Shown here: piece by piece, positions 29,923 through 62,195 of the stretch
How positions within the stretch are numbered: position 1 is the first letter of the stretch
How the letters are laid out: the number at the start of each line of letters is the position of its first letter
Assembly (NCBI RefSeq): GCF_026210795.1
Contig: NC_089433.1
Location: forward strand, 1,116,001-1,180,000
Reading direction: 5' to 3'
Length of the DNA: 64,000 nucleotides
DNA from: Rhizophagus irregularis
Lineage: Eukaryota
Made by a program: the position numbers and the translations under genes
The notes under the pieces: generated by a model
What the model was told of the DNA's origin: nothing
The model's database searches: none
What the model saw: the letters and a program-made list of their open reading frames with translations, nothing else

Positions 29923-32246
29923 TTAATAATCTTCAATCATACAATCAAACCCTTGAGACTCTACTTGAACTAAAATTTCAGTAAGTTTGCGACTTGTAAA
30001 ATGTGCTTGTGGATGAGATTGGATAATAGAAGTGTTTACTTGTTTTTGCACTAAAGATTTATTTGCTTCTACAAATTCAAGCATATCATTTGTTAACTGA
30101 TCATCAATATTAAGTAATCTATATTTATAATTTTCATCCCTGTTTACTTCATAATATTTATTAATACATCTAATCCATTCAGATATAATATTTTCAAGCA
30201 TTATTATAGTTGGTCTATTGGAAGGATTTAAATCCCAACATTTCTTCATTAAATTTGTATAACATTTTGGAGTATTTTTCGTAATTTTAGGACGTTTCCC
30301 TTCATAAACACTCAAGATAAAGTGATGATCATGTGCTTCATAGTTAAATGGAGGGATACCTGATGTAAATTCCCACATTATCATTGAAAGGCTATAAATA
30401 TCACTTGCTGAAGAGTATGGTTTTTTTCTTAATATTTCAGGCGCCATATAAGGTAAAACTCCATAAATTTCATTAATTTTTTTATCAGAATCTTGTAAAT
30501 CACTTATAGGTTTGCTAATCCTAAATCAATAATAAATAACTCATTGTAATTATCTGACATTAAAATATTACCATCATGAAAATCACCATGAGTTAAATTT
30601 GATTCATGTATTACTTTAAGTCCTAATATAATTTTTTTCAATAATCGTAACTTATCTTGCCATTTGAATTTAACTATATCAGGTAAACATTTTCTCAAAC
30701 TACCTTTTTTTGCATAACTCATTACTATTATATAATTTAAGTTATTTGGATCTTGGGTGAATCCAAAGAACTGTATAAATTTTGAAAATGATTTTTTCTG
30801 ACAATTATAATGATATTTCCACTATGTAAATAACAAAAATTATTAAACTTTTGTACAAAGAAATAAAATATGCTACTAAATATAAATACTATACCTCATT
30901 CAGAAATTCATTATTTAAACTTGATGAATTATTAAGTGATTTAAGAATAACCTCATAATATGTTTGCCTATTCCATTGTTGTTTATCAAAATTCCAACTA
31001 AAAATAGGTCCATCTGACCAGATAGCTTTATTAATTTCACTAAATCCTCCTTTAGCATAATAATCAATACTTGATAAATTATTGTAAGGTATCCACTCTA
31101 AAATTTCATAACTATTTTTAGCATTTAGCTGTGCTTCTTGAACAAATTCATCAATAAATTTATTTTTACTAGTCCACTTGAAAAATCTTGTTGAAATTGC
31201 TTAGTATTACATTGTTGGCACCATTGGTAATCAGTATTTAGTTGCTTGCATTCATTACAAAATTCATTTTTAGAACTTGTTTTGTTACTTTCTATTGCTA
31301 TTTGGTACCAATAAAAGGCCCTTTCTAAATTCCTTTTTGTTCCTTCTCCATTTCTATAACATGCAACTAAATTAAAAATTGCATCAATATGACTTTTTTT
31401 TGCTGCTTTTTGATACCAATGAAAGGCTTTTTCTAAATTCTTTTCTGTTCCTTTTCCATTTTTATAAAAATTGGCTAAATCAAACATTGCAATAATATGA
31501 TCTTTTTCTGCTGCTTTTTGATACCAATAAAAGGCTTTTTCAAAATTCTTTTCTGTTCTTTCTCCATTTCTATAAAATATGGCTAACTTAAACATTACAT
31601 TAATTTGACCTTTTTCTGCTGCTTTTTGACACCAATGAAAAGCTTTTTCTAAATTCTTTTTTGTTCCTTTTCCATAATAATAGTGAATGACTAAATTAAA
31701 CATTGCAATAATATGCTCTTTTTCTGCTGCTTTTTGATACCAATGAAAGGCTTTTTCAAAATTCTTTTCTATTCCTTCTCCATGTTTATAACGCACAGCT
31801 AAACTATACATTGCATCAATTTGACCTTTTTCTGCTGCTTTTTGACACCAATAAAAGGCTTTTTCAAAATTCTTTTCTATTCCTTCTCCATGTTTATAAT
31901 GCACAGCTAAATTATACATTGCATTAATTTGACCTTTTTCTGCTGCTTTTTGACACCAATAAAAGGCTTTTTCTAAACTTTTTTCTGTTCCTTCTCCATT
32001 TCTATAACATGTAGATAAATATAACATTGCATTAATATGATCATTTGCTGCTGTTTTTTGATACAAATAAAAGGCCTTTTCTAAATTCTTTTCTGTTCCT
32101 TTTCCATTCTTATAACAGTTCGCTAAACTAAACATTGCTTTTTTATCACCATTTTCTGCTAATTTTTCTAAAGAATCAATACATTCTTTACACCAAAGTT
32201 CTTCAGTAAAGGGCCTATTGCAATATAAACAATTTTTGGTGTTCAT
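29923..32246 (-). pseudogene. Sel1-repeat (8x) + tyrosine-kinase-like protein kinase with two 1-nt frameshifts (pseudogene or assembly indels)
   Basis: Eight 36-aa Sel1 repeats between two CxxC...WCxxC motifs; kinase motifs GGFS, VILK, HGDFHDGN, DLG, MAPE, DIYS; intron 30822-30894 (FLNE|WKYH); frameshifts near 31180 and 30515. Confidence 0.85.
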
Positions 32247-32678
32247 TGTATCAGTATCTTTATCTGGTTATTTTAGAAGTTTGTTTTACTGAAAAAAAAA
32301 TTTTTTCTAGACAAAATTTTTTAAAACAAATAATATTCATGAATGAATCAAAGTAGAAAAGAATAATTGTTTCGGGCCGTATTTCCCGATGCACTCAATG
32401 AACTGATCTTCATTGAGAAATTCCAACTATGGGGTCGTCTAAAACGGGTAGTTTTGTCCAACATTACAATTTGACAACCGTGATGTAGATCAATGCATCA
32501 GAAAAGATATATCCCAAAAACGAGTTTACCACACTAAATTGTGTGAGTTGTGTATCTTATATATAAAACAAAATAAAGTTAAATAAAAATAAAATAATTT
32601 TTAAGAGAAACTTTGAAAAATATCCTCCGCGTAGCGCCAAAAAGATAGGAAAACTACGAAGTAGAAATAAGTAGATCG

Positions 32679-38463: not shown

Positions 38464-41400
38464 GGGTGAATTTATTCCTCACCCCGGGTGAGATTTAATA
38501 TTCTTCACCCCTAAAAATTTTTTTATTTTTTGTTATGTATTTATATGCGTTTTATAATATATTATATATAAAAAAAAATAAAGTTATATTTATTGTATGC
38601 CAAATATATACATATCGTTGATCAATCTTTATTGTTTGATTTCGCCAAATAAACGTAACAATTGAATTGTATCGCACTACTACTAAACAAAATACAAAAT
38701 AATCTTCGCTATAAACATGTGATTATGTAAAGTTCATTATTGTTTTGAACAAGTATTACGATAATGACCGTTTTCTCCACATAAACCACACTTACGACCT
38801 TTATCACCAGAAATTGCTTGTTCACTCCCATTTTTGACTTTATTTGAACCTGATTTTTCAAAAGATGATTTTAACCGCTTCGTTGCGGGTCTACCCTTTG
38901 GTTGATGCTTTAACGGATCCATTATTTGATTAGAATCAACCAATACTCCCCTTGTATTATGAAAAACTCGATTATCATTTGCAATCATTTTTCTTCTTAC
39001 TAAATCTTCTTGTTGTCTAATTGATTCCGCTTGAATTAATTGAGCTTCCCTTCTTTTGTTATATTCTCTTATAAACTGAATTAGTTCTTCATCATCATCT
39101 TGAATCGCAAATTGAATTGCCTTTTTGGCTTCACCCATTAAAGTACCAAATTTCAATTGTTTTTGTGATATTTGCCTGGAATAGCTCTCTGAAAGATCAT
39201 TTACAGTATATTTTCGCGTAAATTCTAAAGTGATTTGTGTATTATTTTGATCATTTTGGCAACTATTCATTATTATTTCACTAGAAGAGATATCACTTGA
39301 AGTGATATATTCATCTTTATACCAACGCTTGGGAATCAACACCAAATGAAAATATGCTTTAGGAGTTTCAACAAACACTTTAAAAAAATGTCTGCATATA
39401 ATACCATGCGTTACAAGCATGAAACAAGTGCATAAATATTCTCCGGTATTAAGCAAAATCACATGTTGATAACACTTCGGAAAATTATACCGAGAGACCT
39501 TCCAAATTTCTAAAATATCGTCTGAGTTAACCATTGAAATCAAGGATTTTAAGTCAAGTTCCCGATCCTCATCAGCTTCAATAGGTGTTTCAATAGAATC
39601 ATCTACTTCTTTATCAAAAAAAGGTTCAAATGAATCGTCATCTGATGCTGAAATTTCGGAAAATGGTACTTGATGTGTACGATAACATACAGATTGGCAC
39701 ATCTGCTTATAATGTGCATCATGAATTGGTTGAGTGAGATACTTTTTCATGGTAATATCAATGTCTTTAAAAAACGTTTGAATAACAAAGGGTTGTGTAT
39801 ACTGTAATGTTGAGGATTTCCAAATTGAATAACGATTGTTAATCAACTCAAATTCTAGCCGATTTTCAATTGATTCTTGAACTTGTGAAAGAAAAAAACT
39901 TGACTGTACAGCCTTCTGTATCAACGCATTTTCTGATTCTACGCGTTGTGTGGATTGTGTTCCCGCCGTGAAATGCCTTGATGTAAAACACTTTACCCAC
40001 GTATGTTTTCTATTTAGTAGCATTGTAGTTATATATTTTTTCCCTGCTTCATATTTTTCAACTATACCTGCAGACCGGCGTTCAAATACACTTTCACAAT
40101 GAGAACGTTGGATTGCCCTAAAATCTTTGAGAAACTCTTGATAAAGAGGTGATCCTAAGCATGAACGAAGATTTTTTGGAAGATTTTGGTAAAGATGGTA
40201 TAAACATTGCATATGATGAGTTTCTGGAAATACTGTAGAAATGGCTGCAATCATGGCAGGATCGGCATCAGTAACAAATGTCAATGGAGGAATTTCACAT
40301 GCTTCAAGACAACATCGAAGCAACCATTCATAAGATTCTTGTTTTTCATCTTGTATGAAGGCTTGGGCCGCCAACCTGCTCTTGTTATAATTATCAATTA
40401 AAATAAAGAGGCTTAATGGGTAGTTATACTTGTTAGTTCGCGCAGTATTGTCATGGATAATAATGTCATAAAATTTAGACCATCTTTCACGTTGTTCTGG
40501 TGACATCCAGAAAATACCAATTAGCCGGTTACTTGTATCATCTATTAATGGCTTTACAAACCATGCAGGATCATCTGCTTGCAATTCAAGAAGTCTCATT
40601 AATAAAGATGCTGCATCTCCTAAATTATTAAGGCCTTTTTCTTGTTTGATCTTTTGAATTGCATTTCCCAAGTCTTGGGTAAGAAATACACGATCAGGAT
40701 ACTTTGGTTGAAGAAGATTCCTAATTGTTCCTGCATCACATCGGCCATGCACAACATAAAATTCTATCTGTTCCATAATTTCTTCAGTAAAATTTTTGTA
40801 ACAAGTGGAGAATTTTATGGTATCGGTGAGAATCTCATGATTGTGTTCGTTATTAAATAACGTTACAGTTACTATGGGTGAATTTATTCGTCTATTAACA
40901 TTCATTTGCCACATACAGCCCTGTTTTTTGGTTCCTTTACTTTTTTCTTTACCTAATGTTGGCCTTAAAAGCTTCTCAGTATACCTTCCTCCTAAATCAC
41001 ACTTAAATACCCTTTTTCTACAAGTACCATCCGGAAATTTTTCACTTTTATGCTTAAAGACAGCAAAATTATTCTGAAGAGCGTACTGTTCTATAAAATG
41101 TACTGCAATTTCCATGGAATGAAACCTTGTTCCATTCTCAATCTCGATTAGAGTATTAATTAACGGAAAGCCACCAACATAATCTTTAAGTTCGGCACCT
41201 AATACACTTTTAACAACATATTCCTCACTATTATCATCATGATTGGTGGGTTCTGTAAAAGGTGAAACCTCATATAACATGATTAACCAAGCACAAAAAG
41301 CAAAGAACATGCAAGAGCAAATACTATTACGGTGCGTATTATGTAGCATGCATGTGAAAAACGCGTGACTGTGGCTTATAATTTATACTGTTTATTTTAT

Positions 41401-41516: not shown

Positions 41517-44024
41517 TTTTTTTATTTATATTTTTTTTTGTAAATTTCAAATTTCATTTAAACATATTTCTTTTGGACACAATCCTAAAAATCATAAACC
41601 CGAAACCACATTATCCCTGACACTTATTATCCTTTTTTAAGATTTTTTTTTAAAAATTTAGTAATGAGATAACATTAAACATTTTTAATTAATTTGATAA
41701 TGATCAACAAATGATCGGAAAATTTCGATAAATACCCGTTGCAAATGAGTTTGTTTAAATAGAAAAATTTAGTATTATAATGTAATACTAAGTAAATTAA
41801 AGATGGTTATAGTAGTTTTTTTGTTTCCATTTAATAAAGTGAATATTTTTAAAAATTATTTATCTATATTATTAATATCATATTTCATTAAATTATCCGG
41901 TTTTTAATATCAGGTGACTCGGTTAGGTTGACTCGTACTGTTTTTTTTTATTAAACAAATAAAAATCTTTTTTTTTTAATAAAAACGAAAAACAACTGAT
42001 TTTTTTTACTAAATTATAAAAAAATCAGTTTCTTTCTTTTCATTTTAATAATCGTTCTTTTTTTTTATTAAAAAAATACTAAATTTTTTTATAAACTAAT
42101 TACGGAAATATGGTTACTCACGGAAGCTAAATATTTATTGTAGAAAAAAATATGTAACGTAATTTTAATTAAACAAATATAATTTTATATACTTAAGCCA
42201 AATATAAATTTGGTTCTTAATAGAGAATTGTTTGTAAAAAAGTTTGATCCTGTAGATAAAGGAGGTTTAGTTTTCTATGAAAATTATTTGCAAAATGATA
42301 TCGAAAATTATCCGATTTTTTTGATTTTCTTTATTACTAAATAAGTCATACATTTTGTTAATTTATTTCATTTATTCAAAAGATTATAATCCATTTCTTA
42401 AACGAAATAATACTTTAATGGCAATAGTAAACATTATATGACTTGAAGAGATATGCAATGGTCATCCGCCATTAAAAAAATCCGGCGCTGAGGCGTTGGG
42501 TCCACAAAGCGCTTGAATTTTAAATATTTCTCGCGATTATCCATTAAAGCTAGAGAAAATTTCAAATATAAAAGATCTTAAGTTTTCGACCTTCTTACTT
42601 TTATTTGTAATCGAAAGAGCTATTTTAAACAACATATAAAAAATTGACTCAGATATTTATTCTCTTTTTATTAAATTTTTCATTATTAAATAGTTATTGG
42701 ATACTAGATATCGGTCGAACACTGGTCGAACACAATACTGCGGTGACCAATAGGAATTAATGCTACTAATAACGATTTAATATAATCCCGCATATTCCTA
42801 ATCGACTGAACAACAACAAAATATTATTAAATTTCCTACCCAAGTTGAAAATATTATAAACCATTTTTTTAATGTTTCTTAATTTATTAAAATTTTAATT
42901 CTAGTAAATATGATATGACAGAATTTAGCAATAGCTAAATTTTAATATGCCTACATTTCATTACTATTTGATATTCGAATGATAAACATTTGTTTGTCAA
43001 AGTTAACCTTTATTATTACGATCGTACAAGTTTAGGTGTTATGCATAAATGTATATGATATACATGCATAAACTTTATTTTTACTAGTATCTACTCTTAG
43101 CGCTCTAGTATGTTCGTGGAGAACGAGGCATATTTACTCAAGTATGAAGAATAAGACTAATTAAAAATTGTAATATAATTAAGAAAAATCGTTATTATTA
43201 GTTTATAATAAAAAAAAAATCACACTGGTCCTATCAAATTCACAATAACTGCGCAATTCCTAAAAATAATTTAAAAAATCAAAATTAATATTTAATATTT
43301 TACCGCTAAACTATTTTGGTATATTTACGTAGTAATAGTCGTACGAAAAGAAGTAAAGAAGCCCGCGTCCTTTTTCATGATACATTATTAAGTAATATAT
43401 TTATAATCCATTTTATTATTTTATTGAAAGAAAAAAATAGATTATATAATTAAATGCAATGAAAAATACAAAGACTACTTGCGATTGATTAAGCATCATA
43501 TGATTTGAAGCGTAATACTTTCTTAACCACTGTTTAAATAACACGTACATACTAGGACAAATTAGGAAATAAAGGCACATATGACTTGTACTATCAATAA
43601 ACATTTGTAATTAATGCTTTTGTTGAAGATCCTTTAAAAAAGGGGAACTTTCTCCGATTTGATAATCTTGATTTAATCATCTGACTGACTGGTTTTTGTC
43701 TCTTAATTTAGTATAAAAAAATTTTTATTGTTTTGTTTCCAACTTTGTTACTTTTTTTTTCTTTCTCTTAAAAAAAATGTATATATGATTTTCATTATCA
43801 TTACCTATCAAATATATCAAATATGTAAATATTTACGTTTAAAAAAAAAAGTTCTACCAAGTCGTTTCATATTAAAGTTTTTAGTATGATCGACAAAAGT
43901 AGTAAATAGATTAGAGATAACGTTCATTTATGAAATTAATTATATAAACCTCACTTTTATCAAAAAATGTTAATTTTTGGCATGACCCTTTTATCCTATT
44001 TTAAATTATATTATTGAAATATTA

Positions 44025-47000
44025 ATGAAAACACTCGTTCGTCCTTCATATAGTAAGGATTTTTTAGACCGCGGGACATTAAACGGGGGATATTTTCACA
44101 ATATTGGAAATATTAATAATATCCAACGACACGATGATAGATATTCGATTAAGGCTGAAAGCTTAGATATGGGCGTTTATTTACAAGAAGATACTTTTGT
44201 CTCTGAAATTAAATATACTAAATTAGTTTATTTCATCATTGATTATCAAAAACGTAATATAAAGGTAGAATTTGATGTTCATGGTAAATTATATTCATTA
44301 GAAAATGAATTCAATAATATTGAAGGTGAAATTTATGTTGAACAACAAAGACCTTATTGGTCTATTACCATCGCAAACAAATTTCCGCCAAGGTATTCAA
44401 TACGTGATGATAACAAACGTTCTTTTAAACGAATGACGAGAATACAAAGTTTAAGAAAAAGTAATGAACCACTTCAACCACATATGTCTGATAATAGTGA
44501 ACAATTAGGCAAATGGGTAGTTTTTAGAATATCCTTTAACAATCAAGCTAATAATCAATTTTATCGTTTTATAAATATGATTGATAAAGCTAGAGATTAT
44601 TCATTAGTATCTAAATTTAATAAACCATTAAAAATAGTAGCTGGGTCAACTTTAAACAAATATGTGAACCGTTCAAATTTAGATTTTGACATCCTATATA
44701 TGATCGAATGTAACCTTTCTTTTAATTACATTCACGATTATAATTTAAATGAAGATTTTTTTTCCTTTTTATCCGTTCAACCAAAAGACGCTGTAATTTA
44801 TGTTTTGGAAAAAATATTTGAAGAGAAAAATCGTATATACGATCCTTTATTATATTTACGTTCAGAGATCAAGAAACGTATTAATGTTTCTGTCAAATTT
44901 AATGAAGTACCTAATCATTGTGCAATGATGCGTAAGGTAGTAGTAACTCCTACTACTATGTATATGTTACCTCCAACTATGGAAACTTCTAATCGAGTGA
45001 TTCGTAATTATGAATATAAAAAAGATAATTTCTTACGAGTACATTTTTCTGATGAAGCATCAAATCCAATCGGTTCATCAAGTGGAAATTTTAATGATAC
45101 TTTTAATGATGCTTTATATAATAGGATTTATTATACATTAAATAATGGTATTAAAATTGGAAATGTACATTATGAATTTTTGGCCTTTTCTTCAAGTCAA
45201 TTGAGAGATCATTCTTGTTGGTTTTTCGCATCAACTGAGGATTTAACCGCAAATAATATAAGAAAGTGGATGGGTGATTTCTCGGATATCAAAACTGTTG
45301 CAAAATATGCTGCACGTATGGGTCAATGTTTTTCAAGTACTAGAGTGATTCAATATGTTCCAGTTAGTGATATTAAAGAAATTCCCGATATAATTAGAAA
45401 TGGGTATACATTTTCTGATGGTATAGGAAAAATATCTTTTTCATTAGCAGAAGTAATTGCAAAAGAATTAGATTTAAAAAGAATTCCAAGTGCTTTTCAA
45501 TTTAGAATGGCGGGATATAAAGGAGTTTTATGTCAATCACGTTATTTGAGAGCAAATCAAGTTCAAGTTCGTCCAAGTCAACATAAATTTAAATCAAATC
45601 ATAATATATTGGAAATTGTTAGATGTTCATCTTACCTTCCATCTTATCTTAATAGGCAAGCCATTACATTATTATCAGCATTAGGAATACCAGATGATGT
45701 ATTCATTCGAATGAAGGATCAACAAGTCAGTGAATTGAGTAGAATTTTTGAAAGTGATCTTTTAGCGTTAAATGTTTTACAACAAAATATTGATGAATAT
45801 GAAACTTCACAATCACTTATAGAATTAGTAAAAGCTGGATTCCTACAATCAAAAGATCCTTACTTAATTAATTTAATTTCTTTATTTCGTATCAAGATGT
45901 TACAAGATCTTAAAAAGAAAGCAAAAATTCGTGTGGGTAGAGGAGCATTTTTAATGGGTGTATTAGATGAAACGAAAACTTTAAAAGATAATGAAGTGTA
46001 TTGTTGTATATCTGATCCTTGTAATCCATCTAAAAGAAAAGTAATTACTGGAACTTGTATTGTATACCGTAACCCTTGTTTTCATCCTGGAGACATACGA
46101 ATCGTTAAAGCTGTATATTGTAATACTTTGAGCAATCTGATGGATGTATTGGTATTTCCTTCAGTTGGATATCGTGATATTCCAAATCAATGTAGTGGTG
46201 GTGATCTAGACGGTGATGATTTTACGTATGTACAATAATTAAACTATGTTAAATTTATATTAATTATTAAAAACAAAATCTAACTATTCCTCTTTTTAGA
46301 ATAATTTATGACGAACATCTAATCCCAAGTGAAGCGCATGAACCCATGAATTATAAATCTAAAAAACCAAAACCGGTCGATCATGTAACTATGGAAAGCA
46401 TTAAAGCATTTTTTGTAAATTATGTATTTTCTGATCAACTTGGTAAGATCGCCAATGCTCATTTGGCAAAAGCGGATTCTTTTCCAAATGGCGCACTCCA
46501 TGGACAATGTAAAGCTCTCGCTCATTTACACTCGGATGCTGTAGATTTTCCAAAAACGGGAATACCGGCAATAGTTCCACAGGAACTTCGTGTAGAACGC
46601 TTTCCAGATTTTATGGAAAAACATGATAAACTAAGTTACGAATCTGAAAAAGTTCTGGGTATTTTATATCGTTCTATTAAAGTAGTAGACTATGAACGAT
46701 ATACTAGTTTGAATTTCGATAAAAGGTTATTATATGTTGAAGGATATGAAAAATATTTAAATAATGCATTAAGACTTAAACGTGCATATGATGCAGAGAT
46801 AAAAGGGGTCATGAATCAATTTGGAATTATGACCGAATTTGAAGTAGTTAGTGGATACATTATTAATACAATTACCAAAATTGATAAGAAAAAACCAAGA
46901 AATGTAATAAAATCTGTAATGGATACAATAATTCCAATTAGAAAAAGTTACCGAAAAAAATTTGAGGAAGAGTTTTATGAAGAAGGAACTAAAATTATTC

Positions 47001-47146
47001 CATCAACAGCTTCTGATCAAATGAAATCAAAAGCCGTTGCTTGGTACTGTGTAACGTATGGATTGAAGGATGAAGATATGATATCTTTTCCTTGGATTGT
47101 GTACGACATTTTATGTGAAATTGTTAAAAATAGTAAGATTAAATGA
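44025..47146 (+). CDS. Eukaryotic RNAi-type RNA-dependent RNA polymerase (exons 44025-46225 and 46300-47146, about 1015 aa)
   Basis: Motifs KYAARMGQCFS, FSDGIG, AFQFRMAGYKG, RNPCFHPGD, catalytic DLDGD, AVDFPKTG. A 74-nt intron 46226-46299 (GTATGT...CTAAC...TAG) joins DGDDFT|IIYDEHL in frame. Confidence 0.95.
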
Positions 47147-54326: not shown

Positions 54327-56002
54327 TTTAAAAAAAAAAACAAACAAACAAACAAACAAACACGATACGGCTCTATAACAGAGTGCAATCTATCCTAAAA
54401 CAAATAAAACTAAACTGCACCTAACTAAAATACTATCTACTAGTGATTACTATGCAGGGAAAAAAAACGCGAGAGAAAATTTGTTATAAAACTGAAAATT
54501 CAGACGGAGCCCAACAGCCCCACGTCCATTAGCAATTATCCCAACTTCTTCCCCCATCAAGTTTATCCCTATAAAAAAAAAGAAAAAATTAGTTATAGTA
54601 TGCTAACCCTATCTAGATTCTATAATATTATTTCGTTTGCATCTAAAAAATTTTTTATCGGTAAATTTTTTAACGTGAAATCACGTGACTTCGATTTTAA
54701 GATGCAAAAATCCGTCATTTAATATCCGTCCTCGCCTCAATTTATCCTTGCTTCTTCACTTTCTTTGTTACTTCTTCCTTCTTCACTTCTCTCTTCTGTG
54801 GTGACTCCAAGATTGGTCGTTTCTCTCCGATTTCTTTTTCGCCTGTCTTGCGATTTTCGTCCTTTAGTCTTTTTTTGAAATCATCATTAAGTGTGGTGTG
54901 TTCTTTAATACTTATTGTTTCTTTACTTCTATTGTTATTATAATTATATACTTACATTATATTTTCAATTTACTAGAAAAAATTTTTTGTTAGTTCAACA
55001 TCTTTTGTTTTATTATTATTAGTTGTTACTTGATACATTATTTGTTTTATCCCTATTTCTAGAAAAAGTCTAATAAATAATTATTTTTATGGGTATTATT
55101 CCAAAAAACTTGTATATATGATCAACTAGTAATAAAAATTTTTATTGGATACAAATTAAAAAATCAATTATCAAATGTGAGGTATTAAGATTGTTAAGAA
55201 GATTATTTACAAGACAAAGATAACCTTCTGAATTGAATGGACAAATGTAAAATTAATTGCTTTTTTGTCACTTAGATATGCTGGATATTTTCCATATACA
55301 TCTTTTGAAAAAAAGAAATTCATGATAAACTCGTAAATGACTACTGAAATAATTTTACAAATGCTGTAAACAAAAAAGTTCTAAAAAATATTTTACGATT
55401 TGACTATTGGACTGCCTGTTAGTGCCTATTATAAAGTTAAAATAATTATGTATAATTATATATAATGTAGTCTTAATAATATAATTTCTTAAATGTATAA
55501 ATGATATTTTTTTTAATTAATATTAAGAATAAAATTAACAATATAAATAAAATACAATTAGCCATTGAAGTGAATATAAAAAATTTTACATTATTTATTT
55601 TAATTTTTTATTTTGATAATTTATACTTAACATTTGGAAAAGTTAAAAAAAAAAGATTTATTTAAATTACAAACTAAGAAATTTGTAAAGTATTTACTAC
55701 TCTAGTCTTAATGTTTAAATAATTCTAAAAAAAGAGAATACATATGAATAAAATATAAAAAAAACGGAATTATTTAAATTACAAACTAAGAATATTGTAA
55801 AATATTTTACTAGTACTCTAGCCTTGGTGTTTAAATAAATCTAAACAACAATTTCTGTTAAATGCATGATATCAAATATCACATAAAAAAACTATAAATT
55901 CTTATAAAAACACGATTATTTTTTATCTGTTTTAAATAATTAAATAAATAAAATTAATTTCACATAAATAATTTGCAAAATTAATTCTTTTTATATACTA
56001 TA

Positions 56003-59000
56003 TTACATACCTAATGACTTCAAATTAACTATACAATCATCCAAATCTTTACTTACTAGCATTTCATTCACTTTTACACTATCTTGTGATTCTTCATTTT
56101 CTTCATTCACTTTTCCACTAGTAGATTGACTTCTACTTTTAAGAATTTCATTTAACTGTTTACTAGTAAAATCATGTAAACGACTTGTATAATATGCATG
56201 TGGATGAGATTCAGTAGCAAGATTATTGTTTTGCCCAACTGGTGCATTTATAAATTCCATAATGTTGCTTTTTAATTCTTCACTGACTTCATAAGGACGG
56301 AAAATCCAATTCCTAATAATTTTTAATACTTCTCTAGAAGATGGCCTTTTTAATGGGTTTTCATCCCAACACCTTTTCATCAAATCTACATAACATTGTG
56401 GAATATTTTCAATAATTTCAGGACGTTCATCTTCACAAATGCCTAAACTAAGTTGAAGATCATGTGCTCTATTATTAAATGGTGGTATTCCAGATGTAAA
56501 TTCCCACATAATCATAGAAAAACTATATATATCACTAGCTGGAGTATAAGGTTTGCCTCTTAAAACTTCAGGAGCCATAAATGGTATGACACCATGAATA
56601 TCATACTTTTTCAAAAACGATTTTACAGATTGACATAATCCTAAATCACTAATATAAATCTTATAGACATCCACACCATAATCATGATTTAAAATATTAC
56701 CATCATGAAAATCACAATGAATAAGATTTTTTTCATGTATCTTATCAAGTCCAGAAATAATTTCGTACAACATATATAATTTTTGATTCCAATTATTTTT
56801 GGCTATACTTATTAAATTTTCTCTTAAATTACCTTTATTTGCATGATCCATTACTACCATATATTTTGAAGTATTTGGATCTTTTGTAAATCCATAAAAA
56901 TCTATAATATTGAAATCAGATACAACACTTGCATGATGTTTCCACTATAAAAAGTAATAATAGTTTATTAATATAAATAAATTTAATTTAAATTAAAAAT
57001 AGAAAATAATATACTATCATACTTCTTTCAAAAATTCATTTAAATTTTCATTTAAATTCTTGTGACATTTAAAAATTACTTCAACCTCTTCATCTTTATC
57101 TCTGTTATTCCTTAACCAAATAGCACTGTATATAGTACCAAATCCTCCTTCATTAAGATATTCAACATTTTTAAATTTGTCATAAGGAATCCATCTTAAT
57201 CCTTCTTTAATAATAAAATCATCTATAATTGCATTTCCACTTTTCCCAAATCTATAAATTTAAATAATTAAAATTATATTATAGATTGTATTGTAATTTA
57301 TACAAAATAAATTATTACTTACTCTAAAATTTAAATTAGGGATTTAATGAAATATAAGTCTTAATTTTTAGATAAATACATATAATAACCTATGATTTAC
57401 AACTTACCAACTAAAGTAACAGATATTGATATTTTTCAAATAAAAGAATTCAGTTAACAAATAAATATTATATAAAACATATAACAATAGAGATACTTAC
57501 AAACTAGATCATAAATAATTTTTAAATAAAGAGATTAGATAATTTAAATTATATCATTATATGTAAATATTATAACAATAAGTAACAATAGAATTAAATA
57601 AATAACTTACTCTCTATATTATTTAATAATTTTTTAAATAAAGAAATTAGATAGTTTAAATTATATGTAAATATTAAAACAATAAGTAACAATAGAATTA
57701 AATAAATAACTTACCATCTATAAAATAATTTTTTAAATAAAGAAATTAGATAGTTTAAATTATATGTAAATATTATAACATTAAGTAATAATAGAATTAA
57801 ATAAATAACTTACACCCTATATCATTTAATAATTTTTTAAATAAAGAAATTAGATAGTTTAAATTATATGTAAATATTATAACAATAAGTGACATTAGAA
57901 TTAAATAAATAACTTACCATCTATAAAATAATTTTTTAAATAAAGAAATTAGATAGTTTAAATTATATGTAAATATTATAACAATAAGTAATAATAGAAT
58001 TAAATAAATAACTTACACCCTATATCATTTAATAATTTTTTAAATAAAGAAATTAGATAGTTTAAATTATATGTAAATATTATAACAATAAGTAATAATA
58101 GAATTAAATAAATAACTTACACCCTATATCATTTAATAATTTTTTAAATAAAGAAATTAAATAATTTAAATTATATGTAAATATTATAACAATAAGTAAT
58201 AATAGAATTAAATAAATAACTTACTCTCTATATTAATTTAATAAATAAAGAAATTAGATAGTTTAAATTATATGTAAATATTATAACAATAAGTAATAAT
58301 AGAATTAAATAAATAAATCATGACTTACCAACTAAATTAAATTACAAAATAATTTTTTAAATAAAGAAATTAGATAGTTTAAATTATATGTAAATATTAA
58401 AACAATAAGTAACAATAGAATTAAATAAATAACTTACCATCTATAAAATAATTTTTTAAATAAAGAAATTAGATAGTTTAAATTATATGTAAATATTATA
58501 ACAATAAGTAATAATAGAATTAAATAAATAACTTACACCCTATATCATTTAATAATTTTTTAAATAAAGAAATTAGATAGTTTAAATTATATGTAAATAT
58601 TATAACAATAAGTAATAATAGAATTAAATAAATAACTTACACCCTATATCATTTAATAATTTTTTAAATAAAGAAATTAAATAATTTAAATTATATGTAA
58701 ATATTATAACAATAAGTAATAATAGAATTAAATAAATAACTTACTCTCTATATTAATTTAATAAATAAAGAAATTAGATAGTTTAAATTATATGTAAATA
58801 TTATAACAATAAGTAATAATAGAATTAAATAAATAACTTACTATCTATAAATAATTTAATAAATAAAGAAATTAGATAGTTTAAATTATATGTAAATATT
58901 ATAACAATAAGTAATAATAGAATTAAATAAATAACTTACTCTCTATATTAATTTAATAAATAAAGAAATTAGATAGTTTAAATTATATGTAAATATTATA

Positions 59001-60157
59001 ACAATAAGTAATAATAGAATTAAATAAATAAATCATGACTTACCAACTAAATTAAATTACAAAATAATTTTTTAAATAAAGAAATTAGATAGTTTAAATT
59101 ATATAAATTATATGTAAATATTATAACAATAAGTAATAATAGAATTAAATAAATAACTTACACCCTATATCATTTAATAATTTTTTAAATAAAGAAATTA
59201 GATAGTTTAAATTATATGTAAACATGAATATTATAACAATAAGTAATAATAGAATTAAATAAATAACTTACCATCTATTTAAATAAAGAATTTAGTTAGT
59301 TTAAATTATATGTAAATATTATAACAATAAGTAATAATAGAATTAAAATAAATAACTTACTATCTATAAATAATTTTTTAAATAAAGAATTTAGTTAGTT
59401 TAAATTATATAAATAATAATAAAAAAACTAGATATCTATAACTTACACCCTAGTGTTGTTAATTAATTATTAGTTAAGTATAAATATAATATAAAATTAT
59501 TTACTGTAAATTAAATATATCACTTACAAACTAGTTGTTTAAATTAAGAATATAATTAGTTGAGTTATATAAAATATTAAACAAATAAATATGATATTAT
59601 AACTTACCTTCTGTAATACAATAATTATTAAATAGTTAATTAAATAAAGAATTTAGTTATTTGAATATTATGTAAAATAAACAAAGTAAAGAATTAAAAT
59701 TTAAATAACTAATAACTTACTGACTATAGTATTATTAATCATTAAATGAATTATTTAATTACATAAAATGTAATAAAAATGATAAGTAAATCCATTATTA
59801 TTCAATTATAAGATAACCTATTAACTTACAATCTATATTTGTATATTATATAAGGTGTAATTATAGATAGTATTTAAATGCATTTACAAATAAAAATTTA
59901 ATATTTTAGCATGTTTAATATACCTATAGATTCCTTGGTACAACTTTTTTCAAATTCTTCAAAGCCACTTTCTTTGAATTCCTCGAATTCCTCAGAGCCA
60001 CTTCCTTCAAATTCTTCAGTACTGCTTCCTTCAAGTTCAATATTACCAGAAACTAGTTTTATTATATTATAAATTTGTTTAAAATATTAGAATTCTAATT
60101 GTATTAAATGTTTATATTATATATATGATTATTACCCTTATCATTATTAAGAGCCAT
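56003..60157 (-). CDS. Tyrosine-kinase-like protein kinase with a micro-exon-encoded N-terminal segment (30 exons, 465 aa predicted)
   Basis: Exons 60157-60136 (MALNNDK), 60052-59924 (acidic), 25 three-nt exons, a 1-nt exon at 57323, 57251-57023 (FGKSGNAIIDDFI...WIPY...EGGFG...VIFK) and 56944-56003 (HCDFHDGN, DLG, MAPE, DIYS). Total 1398 nt, open throughout. The kinase exons are certain; the 5' model is inferred from splice signals. Confidence 0.8.
57323..59832 (-). repeat. Tandem intron + micro-exon array (units about 80-118 bp)
   Basis: Exons in transcript order (lowest coordinate given): ATT 59830, TCA 59721, AAG 59608, TTT 59528, GGT 59447, ATA 59361, ATG 59272, GGT 59162, TTG 59044, AGA 58940, ATA 58842, AGA 58745, GGT 58641, GGT 58537, ATG 58438, TTG 58329, AGA 58225, GGT 58121, GGT 58017, ATG 57918, GGT 57814, ATG 57715, AGA 57611, TTT 57501, TTG 57408, A 57323. 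Each is YAG-exon-GTAAGT. Confidence 0.88.
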
Positions 60158-60664
60158 TACTATATAATTATATTAAAATTCTTTCTTACTGGAAAAAAGA
60201 ATGATAATGTAAATATCTTTTTTATTATTAAACGCCTTTATTAATATAGGTATATATGGTGATAATATTTATGCAAAATGCATTATGCATGTATAACAAA
60301 CAAATTTTGCACATATATCTCAATCATTGTTGCACAGCAAAATCATAAAGCAAAGAAAAATTTCTTAATACATACTAGTTATAAAATCAGTTTTCATATT
60401 CTGGCCAGGTCAGTAAATTACAAATTCAAAAATTTTTTATAATTTTAATTTTTTTTTATATTAAGATAATTGGCCAATAAAAATAGTTTATATTTTATAA
60501 TATCATAATAACATGAAATCAATATCATCAATATCATAATAAATTGAGGCGGATAAATATTGCTTTAAAGAAAATTTCTTATTCGGATAAATGGAAAAAA
60601 AAAAATGTTAGCAATTTTATTTATTTTATTTTGTTAATTTTTATTTTAGAAAGTTTTTACTTCA

Positions 60665-60785
60665 AATCACCGGGAGTGATCATCACCGTTGGCCAGAATT
60701 ATCAATTTTTACCGGCACTATATTCATTGTAATGCTGGTCAATCGTCATAATTTCAGTCACCGGTGATCATCACCTCCCGATGAT
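60665..60785. mobile_element. Small hairpin/MITE upstream of the micro-exon kinase
   Basis: ATCACCGGGAGTGATCATCACCG is imperfectly inverted as CGGTGATCATCACCTCCCGATGAT. Confidence 0.55.
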
Positions 60786-62195
60786 AGTTAGTAAAATTCT
60801 TTCAGATAATCATTATTATTAAAGGTCATAATATTAACTTCCAAATCGGTATCCTAATATAATTTATTCTTTTAGGACATAAATTGAATATAAATAAATG
60901 ATTAAATTTTGAATTTAAAAAAAGAATAATGATTAATTTACAAAATTAATTTATTTAAAAACGATTTCTGATGAATAAAAAGATTTAAGATCTCAAGTAA
61001 TTAATATGCACTTTGTTTATTATAATTTTTGTATATTTCTTAATCCATTAATCATTTACGCGTTTATTCTGTTTTATTTCTTTGTATAAGATATTATTTA
61101 TATTTAAGATAAGTATACTAGAAACTGGAAAAGTATATTAACAAAATTTATTTAATAATATTAAAATATAGTATTAAATAATGTATATCACCTTTTACAA
61201 AATTTTACTATGAATATTAACTTGTAAGAAATATTGGTGCGCAAATTTTTCAAAAATTAAGAGTAAACTGATCTTCTAACAGTGGTCGTAATTCTATCGA
61301 GGGATACAGTACCTTAAATCAATAAAGTTGCATATTTCAAGTTTTACATCAAAATCGACAGATATTTTACATTGTTTTTGTTTTTGATCGGGTATAACTA
61401 AACCTTGTTATATTTATATTTTAACAATTTCAACTTGCTACTAACATTTTATAATTTTTTGCGTACTATCTATCACATGACATAATTAATATTCTGAAAT
61501 ATATTTAATTACAAGAAATATTTATAAATAGCGTTAAAATTTTATTAGTTCAATATATATAAAGCTCTTCTCGGACTTAGAAGATAATTTTAATTTTTTT
61601 TATTTGTTGCTGCTGACTACTAGTTATTGATTCCAAAATGATGACATTTTCGAAATTGTAGTGGAAGACGCAACCTTTGATGACCCAAATAAAGATTCAA
61701 TACCTTCAACATTCTTATAGCCAATATATCATCATTCAGTTTGTTATCATCTATGTTAAATAGTCATTTTTAATAAGTTTTATTTAAATAAGATCAATTT
61801 AAATTATTTTTATTTTTTTTACGTAAATATATTAATAATAAAAATGTTTGTGAAACTGTTATATTTGTAATTCAACTAAATTTGTTAAAACTTTATCAAA
61901 ATATAATTATCTGTTCTGAAATGCATTTTTAACCGATTAAATTGATTAATTAATTAAATGAGATACCTTAATTGGTTAACCAACTTAATCGATTAATTAA
62001 TCGATTAATCTCCAACTTCTAAAAATTTAATCAATGTGTTCTATCACAAAAGTAAAGTTGCAAAATAAAAAAATTAAAACGAGTTTTATTAGTTTTATTA
62101 AGAATTTATCTGTAAAATTTTGAAACTTAAAAACAAATAATTGTTCTATTATAATATAATGTAATTTTCTTTGTTTTGTTAAGTGAACATGTACC

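Follow-up and report, generated by a model that had tools for sequence, protein, structure and literature searches.

Codon-sized microexons were reportedly described in 2012 by Iotti et al. in the nank (NACHT-ankyrin) genes of Tuber melanosporum. The accounts of this fungus, in the portions covered here, give tens of codon-sized microexons and alternative splicing in nank genes (PMC4986451, PMC3689799). According to the covered part of a further account, the micro-exon genes (MEG) of Schistosoma have exons of 3–81 base pairs (bp) and introns of up to 5 kb and encode secreted proteins (PMC10526429). In plants, APC11 and VPS55 carry microexons of one nucleotide (nt) that have a GTRAGT donor, fix the reading frame and are missed by annotation, and the introns flanking plant microexons are removed consecutively, again as given in part of the source (PMC8831610). 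Here, we describe an array of predicted three-base exons in a 64,000-nt stretch of Rhizophagus irregularis DNA (assembly GCF_026210795.1, contig NC_089433.1, positions 1,116,001–1,180,000 of the forward strand; hereafter the window), which lies on the minus strand directly in front of the exons of a tyrosine-kinase-like (TKL) kinase. An earlier inspection of the letters alone, hereafter the sequence-only reading, had proposed that this apparent satellite is a run of micro-exons feeding a kinase and had named Schistosoma as the comparable case; the novelty was overstated, as the Tuber genes are the closer precedent, and this fungal precedent for the design limits what is new here.

Like the nank genes, the locus combines tens of codon-sized exons with membership in an expanded fungal gene family, and its array works like the nank arrays; however, it is not a nank gene, the host being a TKL kinase of Glomeromycota rather than a NACHT-ankyrin protein, and the array precedes the kinase and ends with a 1-nt exon. 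Many tiny exons that build a variable polypeptide are common to the Schistosoma MEG and to this locus, whereas here the exons are 3 nt long (one is 1 nt), the introns are tandem copies of 71–115 nt and the product is a kinase. The 1-nt exon has the signals and the frame requirement known from APC11 and VPS55 but closes a run of 25 three-base exons. R. irregularis has an expanded family of TKL kinases (PF07714) (PMC6123716, PMC4219462), and the covered portions of these accounts do not mention a micro-exon array; nor does the corresponding part of a long-read annotation preprint, its supplements aside, mention such exons (10.1101/2022.10.19.511543). Our literature search, which covered few subscription papers, found no report of such arrays in kinases of mycorrhizal fungi. 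We regard the splicing architecture alone as very likely. The fuller reading, which we favor with moderate confidence, is that the array is spliced into a 26-residue peptide that is reshuffled by unequal recombination and forms a variable binding or sensing patch before the TKL domain.

Splice Signals of the Array

On the minus strand, 25 consecutive units of YAG, three bases and GTAAGT run from 59832 to 57408 at a spacing of 80–118 bp, in the number that the sequence-only reading had given, and only two further matches to this motif occur elsewhere in the window. Block-shuffled windows hold 1.04 matches on average and at most four (100 shuffles), a pattern of two linked units matches 17 times in the window and never in 100 shuffles, and the motif would arise by chance with a probability of about 2e-5 in a 100-nt unit of intron composition. 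All 25 donors are the full GTAAGT. For the CTAAT or CTAAC branch motif, which had been said to lie upstream of most units, 19 of the 25 introns have a copy no more than 70 nt from the acceptor; another five have TTAAY, and one has neither. The three bases are of nine kinds, the same nine that had been listed before. The signals also hold in the diverged outer units, as had been claimed: introns 1, 2, 5, 25, 26, and 27 have 48–64% identity to the others, which is no more than shuffled sequence gives (58 ± 4%), and their signals are still exact. On neither strand is the array crossed by a stop-free frame of more than 40 codons, and Rfam has no match in 55000–62000.

Recursive splicing at ratchet points was also considered. 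In recursive splicing, the acceptor directly adjoins the donor and no exon base is left; here, three variable bases, once one, part acceptor and donor in every unit.

A 31-Exon Model of a TKL Kinase

Spliced to its flanking exons, the array gives a 31-exon model for a 466-residue TKL protein that has no internal stop, consists of an acidic N-terminus followed by a kinase domain and equals the public model P0122 from the kinase exon onward. Because the 25 triplets keep phase 1 and would by themselves shift the frame relative to the kinase exon, which opens in phase 2, a single A at 57323 is required as an exon of its own; without it, a stop follows eight codons into the kinase exon. The stop-free product expected from the sequence-only reading was thus reproduced, although not from the triplets alone, and the insert of 76 nt predicted between the flanking exons has the right size but includes this 1-nt exon, which had gone unnamed. 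Similarly, the notion of about one residue per exon stands for the length of the exons but not for their codons, each of which is split 1+2 over two neighboring exons.

By its sequence, the gene is a member of the Glomeromycota TKL kinases (PF07714). Pfam finds only kinase families in P0001, the entry of R. irregularis DAOM 181602, and in its paralog P0052; P0001 carries the glycine loop, lysine, and catalytic aspartate motifs of TKL kinases, and the closest solved structures to the kinase are EGFR, CTR1, and MLT/ZAK. The family is expanded, with 1642 matches among 2338 candidates, and among 120 matches listed nearly all are Rhizophagus entries; a kinase search of prokaryote genomes found no relative. 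The slot upstream of the kinase holds a four-cysteine motif in 28 of 47 kinases of the wider family versus 1 of 43 in the close set. A same-family kinase on the minus strand of the window (29923–32267) has eight Sel1 repeats and cysteine motifs upstream of its kinase exon.

At the point of the array, public models of this family are cut short, broken into separate models, or extended by intron read-through. Predicted exon 2 has 66–76% identity to the N-termini of the kinases P0052, P0032, and P0039 and is present in 37 of 273 retrieved proteins, 16 of which join it to a kinase via short unrelated segments and 21 of which have no kinase, a division that would follow from the failure of predictors to bridge a hidden array. 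The models P0001, P0122, and P0124 begin inside or after the array, and the first exon of P0001 and P0122 is probably an annotation artefact in which an array intron is read through from a chance ATG. In four paralog clusters (P0048/P0169, P0025, P0038/P0164, and P0003), the annotated N-termini translate homologous array introns, with scores of 45–61 bits versus 35 bits or less in 50 shuffles. A count of such protein-to-intron matches at a loose E value (13) fell within the shuffled range (5–14) and was replaced by a 40-bit cut.

The Same Layout before Other Kinases

We scanned metagenome contigs for two linked units and obtained at least 102 loci; the scan selects for arrays and gives no frequency, and the GTAAGT conservation pooled over loci follows from the search pattern itself and carries no weight as evidence. 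A filter of at least four units, at least three triplet types, and no covering open frame was passed by 18 of the 102 loci listed, and the 84 that failed were mostly short simple repeats or coding repeats. Two of these 18 (L052 and L084) resemble ordinary short repeats, L019 and L020 are one contig, and L007, with three units, lies below the minimum yet was kept in the frame test. The layout and phase seen in the window recur before other kinases. Eight AT-rich loci are similar to the window array: TKL kinase exons follow the arrays of L003 (17 units), L053 (15 units), and L014 (4 units), a kinase-like remnant without a Pfam match follows that of L094 (13 units), and another kinase type (weak match) follows that of L036, whereas no kinase was identified at L046, L055, and L007. 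In all four loci checked, the exon after the array opens in phase 1. Composition and kinase similarity suggest that the AT-rich loci are from Glomeromycota. Their introns have an identity of 0.62–0.66 to those of the window, slightly above shuffles (0.57–0.60), and of 0.67–0.90 within each locus, and the kinases behind the arrays are only about 45–55% identical to each other. As a control, 80 loci from prokaryote assemblies were passed through the filter; four passed, all on eukaryote-looking contigs, and the ordinary repeats with the same motif among them have one to three triplet types or lie inside open frames. Among viral contigs, the pattern scan hit 13 loci, and the filter let none of them through.

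These comparisons bear on the explanation that the array consists of real exons but is only tolerated as a by-product: in a dispensable linker, a unit of intron and codon would gain and lose copies as long as the frame is kept and no stop arises. Unequal crossover can expand tandem units even if they bring no benefit, no motif common to the predicted peptides of different loci is obvious by eye, and the kinase family is large and repeat-rich, as far as the covered part of its description goes (PMC6123716). However, the splice signals are kept through full intron divergence and across kinases as distant as those above, and arrays of the same design also adjoin a NACHT-ankyrin gene (L019) and one with ZU5 (L174), domains often linked to recognition. 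In addition, 10 of the 26 residues of the predicted peptide are aromatic, which is unusual for a linker. We consider the by-product explanation unlikely.

Stop Codons Are Avoided in One Frame

The real order of the 25 triplets contains no stop, whereas among 10,000 random orders 97.3% contain one, or 88.7% when only the core is considered; these values overstate independence because the units are related by duplication. GGT followed by AGA, the stop-making pair among the five core types, never occurs. The window array and eight AT-rich metagenome arrays together have 0 stops in 84 phase-1 junctions, where permuted orders predict only 2.9 stops, 2.0 of them from the window array, and where five pairs of L046 probably span missed units; in phase 2, the other split frame, the same nine arrays have 18 stops versus 18.7 expected. 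Stop avoidance that is specific to the frame set by the flanking exons supports the micro-exon reading. The exons also differ from the intron bodies in G content (35% vs 3%).

Paralog Transcripts at the 3′ End of the Array

Four of 24 runs listed (X21, X22, X24, and X1) were compared with positions 55900–57550, which covers the 3′ side of the array only, exons 1 and 2 and the first triplets being a prediction. X1 is DNA-like, with high intron depth, and listed no loose end at 57251; the other three comprise two poly(A) runs from a single study and a run from a second study that is probably RNA. In X21, X22, and X24, respectively, 188, 248, and 37 reads leave the window sequence at exactly 57251, and the depth falls from more than 200 in the kinase exon (about 60 in X24) to 1–3 at 57300–57355. 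Both ends of the first kinase exon are splice points in paralog RNA. The consensus of the loose ends starts with TCAAAA on the plus strand in all three runs, which equals the predicted A, TTG, and TT; TTG adjoins the single base in each consensus, and the paralog reads have one A between TTG and the kinase exon, from an exon that may be of another size in the paralogs. The loose ends match neither an array intron nor exon 2; thus the expressed paralogs do not mainly keep the introns or skip the array as a whole. By eye and in register, 25 of 27 consensus triplets are types found in genomic arrays, although any coding sequence in that frame would favor T at that position. Splicing at the 3′ end of the array is thereby shown in paralogs. 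Together with the frame-specific stop avoidance and the matching arrays before other kinases, this supports the micro-exon reading; for the window copy the support is indirect, as nearly all reads of the RNA runs came from paralogs.

Apart from the low number of stops expected under permutation, several observations count against our interpretation. Reads at least 99% alike to the window copy are only 5 of 1598, 9 of 1828, and 14 of 988, and at position 56802 all 198 of 198 reads carry a base other than that of the window copy, no transcript of which was seen in the three RNA runs. The match of the loose ends is six letters long, and the seventh differs (CTT vs TTT in the window gene). Their consensus mixes paralogs, with an agreement of 0.58–0.65, and the last exons of the paralogs could differ in size. 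The predicted peptide was not seen by eye in any of 419 retrieved proteins, and searches for a transcript-derived protein carrying it found none.

The absence of the window copy's own allele from the RNA runs would suit a copy that is an unspliced intronic satellite or a silent gene, with any protein product beginning within or downstream of the array, like the three public models named above. We hold this to be very improbable: against it stand the exact motifs in diverged units, the frame-specific avoidance of stops, the intact 466-codon frame, the conservation of the upstream exons, the splicing of paralog reads at 57251, and the outcome of the prokaryote-assembly control, where no prokaryote-looking contig passed the filter.

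Low agreement among the loose ends is also what one would see if the exons are real and diversity arises mainly from alternative splicing, by in-frame skipping of 3-nt exons as for Tuber nank, for which the covered parts of the accounts provide the precedent (PMC4986451, PMC3689799). Every 3-nt exon is frame-neutral, skipping of all 25 with the 1-nt exon kept leaves the frame open, and simulated skipping of 10% per exon yields 70% open products and 3368 distinct peptides in 20,000 draws. However, low agreement is equally explained by mixed paralogs, the full GTAAGT at all 25 donors and the stop-free genomic order fit inclusion of most exons, and skipping makes stops at 24 of 300 skip junctions and in 4 of 25 single skips. 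We consider skipping rather unlikely as the main source of diversity; it can operate together with the recombination that we favor.

Probable Reshuffling of the Units

Pairs of introns within the array are identical (10 and 17, 13 and 18, 14 and 19, and 15 and 20), so that identical introns recur at offsets of five and seven units and reveal that blocks of units were duplicated. Units 8–23 of the core use five triplet types, and the mean diversity of the core is 0.066 in the intron columns versus 0.51–0.70 at the three exon positions. Its diversity is concentrated at the acceptor end and the exon, with each triplet traveling with its own acceptor-end variant. Given a uniform intron body and a variable acceptor and triplet, crossovers would reorder acceptor-plus-triplet cassettes, and because a codon is made of one base of one exon and two of the next, a new order of cassettes writes new residues; the five core cassettes can yield 12 residues and one stop. 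Recombination thus likely reshuffles the peptide, reshuffling within the species being read from one array of one isolate, a further point of caution.

A neutral satellite, in which divergence would be even and blind to frame, was considered and rejected. The tandem repeat that Tandem Repeats Finder (TRF) reports at 57556–59410 has, like a minisatellite or satellite, a regular period (104 bp), many copies (16.6), and signs of unequal crossover; unlike in one, the acceptor end and the bases of the exon hold most of the variation, the signals outlast the repeat, and the order of units respects one frame.

We propose that the array works as follows. The short introns would be removed one after another, as inferred from plant microexons, such that each tiny exon grows onto an exon already joined. 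An intron of about 100 bp would give each codon-sized unit enough homology for crossover or conversion, the 1+2 split would turn each new order into new residues at every junction, and selection would remove those orders that create a stop. The peptide would take the place that the four-cysteine motif or the Sel1 repeats occupy just upstream of the kinase in other members of the family, and it would vary what the kinase binds, as a predicted variable patch for binding or sensing that is diversified mainly in DNA.

In a broader form, which we put forward tentatively and would not ourselves assume, recognition proteins of many eukaryotes would share arrays of codon-sized exons as a recurring cassette in which codons are shuffled. 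Arrays would replace the cysteine or Sel1 module on many TKL kinases of arbuscular mycorrhizal fungi and provide each isolate or nucleus with a hidden repertoire of sensor peptides, which would arise by recombination together with exon skipping, and the same device would precede NLR-type genes of fungi and ZU5 genes of animal type.

In the model mycorrhizal fungus, no gene family is more expanded than the TKL kinases. Should the arrays be spliced, the annotation of part of this family is wrong at its most variable segment, and stretches masked as satellite are coding. The array would then be a concrete mechanism of diversification and a case of extreme splicing, in which 27 introns are taken out to leave 76 bases and one exon is a single base.

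Table 1. Positions of the array, its exons, and the exons of the kinase gene in the window
Feature	Position	Strand	Remarks
Predicted exon 1 (ATG, 22 nt, ends in phase 1)	60136..60157	-	Same N-terminus opens paralog models such as P0052, P0039, and P0032
Predicted exon 2 (129 nt, acidic Glu/Ser/Gly-rich repeat, phase 1-1)	59924..60052	-	
Micro-exon array	57252..59923	-	27 introns of 71–115 nt, 25 three-base exons, and one single-base exon
Outer 5′ units 1–7	59272..59923	-	Intron bodies partly or fully diverged, splice signals intact (identity matrix)
Homogenised core, units 8–24, the apparent 104-bp satellite	57501..59271	-	Block duplications
3-nt exons 1–9, highest base	59832, 59723, 59610, 59530, 59449, 59363, 59274, 59164, 59046	-	
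3-nt exons 10–18, highest base	58942, 58844, 58747, 58643, 58539, 58440, 58331, 58227, 58123	-	
3-nt exons 19–25, highest base	58019, 57920, 57816, 57717, 57613, 57503, 57410	-	
First exon of public model P0001/P0122	57815..57895	-	Read-through of intron 21, 100% match, ATG private to intron 21 (core alignment)
Last 3-nt exon, TTG	57408..57410	-	Flanking introns diverged
Predicted 1-nt exon (A), phase 1 to phase 2	57323..57323	-	Between TAG and GTAAGT
Kinase exon 1 (glycine loop, catalytic lysine region; opens in phase 2)	57023..57251	-	Identical to P0001/P0122
Kinase exon 2	56011..56944	-	100% identical to P0001 over 312 aa (amino acids); Pfam PF07714, E 1.3e-39
Last coding exon with stop codon	55916..55926	-	Matches the C-terminus of P0122

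Further Arrays and Other Genes of the Window

Outside the kinases, the contig of L019 and L020 (L019:2307–8061) encodes a hydrolase, NACHT, a winged helix, and a weak ankyrin match; at least 28 three-base units with a spacing of 83 bp come next, with stops in phase 1 and none in phase 0 or 2. It looks like a Tuber nank-type gene in another ascomycete, and the introns of the window show no similarity to its introns. A 12.9-kb contig binned in a bacterial assembly (G001:C1:62–8800; L182 and L174) contains at least 82 units of acceptor, 3 nt, and GTAAGT at about 102-bp spacing, with 0 stops in 80 phase-1 junctions versus 16 in phase 2, followed by a ZU5 exon; L197:587–2246 is listed beside it. 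A later exon of this contig that appears death-domain-like by eye has no Pfam match and no significant PDB match. The gene is probably eukaryotic and perhaps from an animal, and would then extend the arrays beyond fungi.

AT-rich arrays with a spacing of 33 bp (30-nt introns) and many triplet types are present on short contigs of a Mycoplasma bin (L151, L160, and L193), one of which (L160) has one in-register stop triplet; their source is probably a eukaryote with tiny introns. Variable-triplet arrays also occur at 56-bp spacing (L056:5944–7000 and L067:250–1985) and at about 75–115 bp (L063, L083, L088, L092, L078, L028, and L085). Two tiny AT-rich contigs of a Glomeribacter assembly (L176 and L183) have three units each with diverged spacers; they may be DNA of the fungal host, in which case the arrays would extend to another mycorrhizal lineage.

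Elsewhere in the window, a plus-strand cluster at 1203–22332 comprises four similar frames of 495–507 amino acids and a fragment; the frame that was scanned has no Pfam match. We take the frames of this cluster to be F-box-like at their start. An RNA-dependent RNA polymerase gene (PF05183) lies at 43986–47146 on the plus strand and a MULE/FAR1 transposase frame of 881 amino acids at 38737–41382 on the minus strand.

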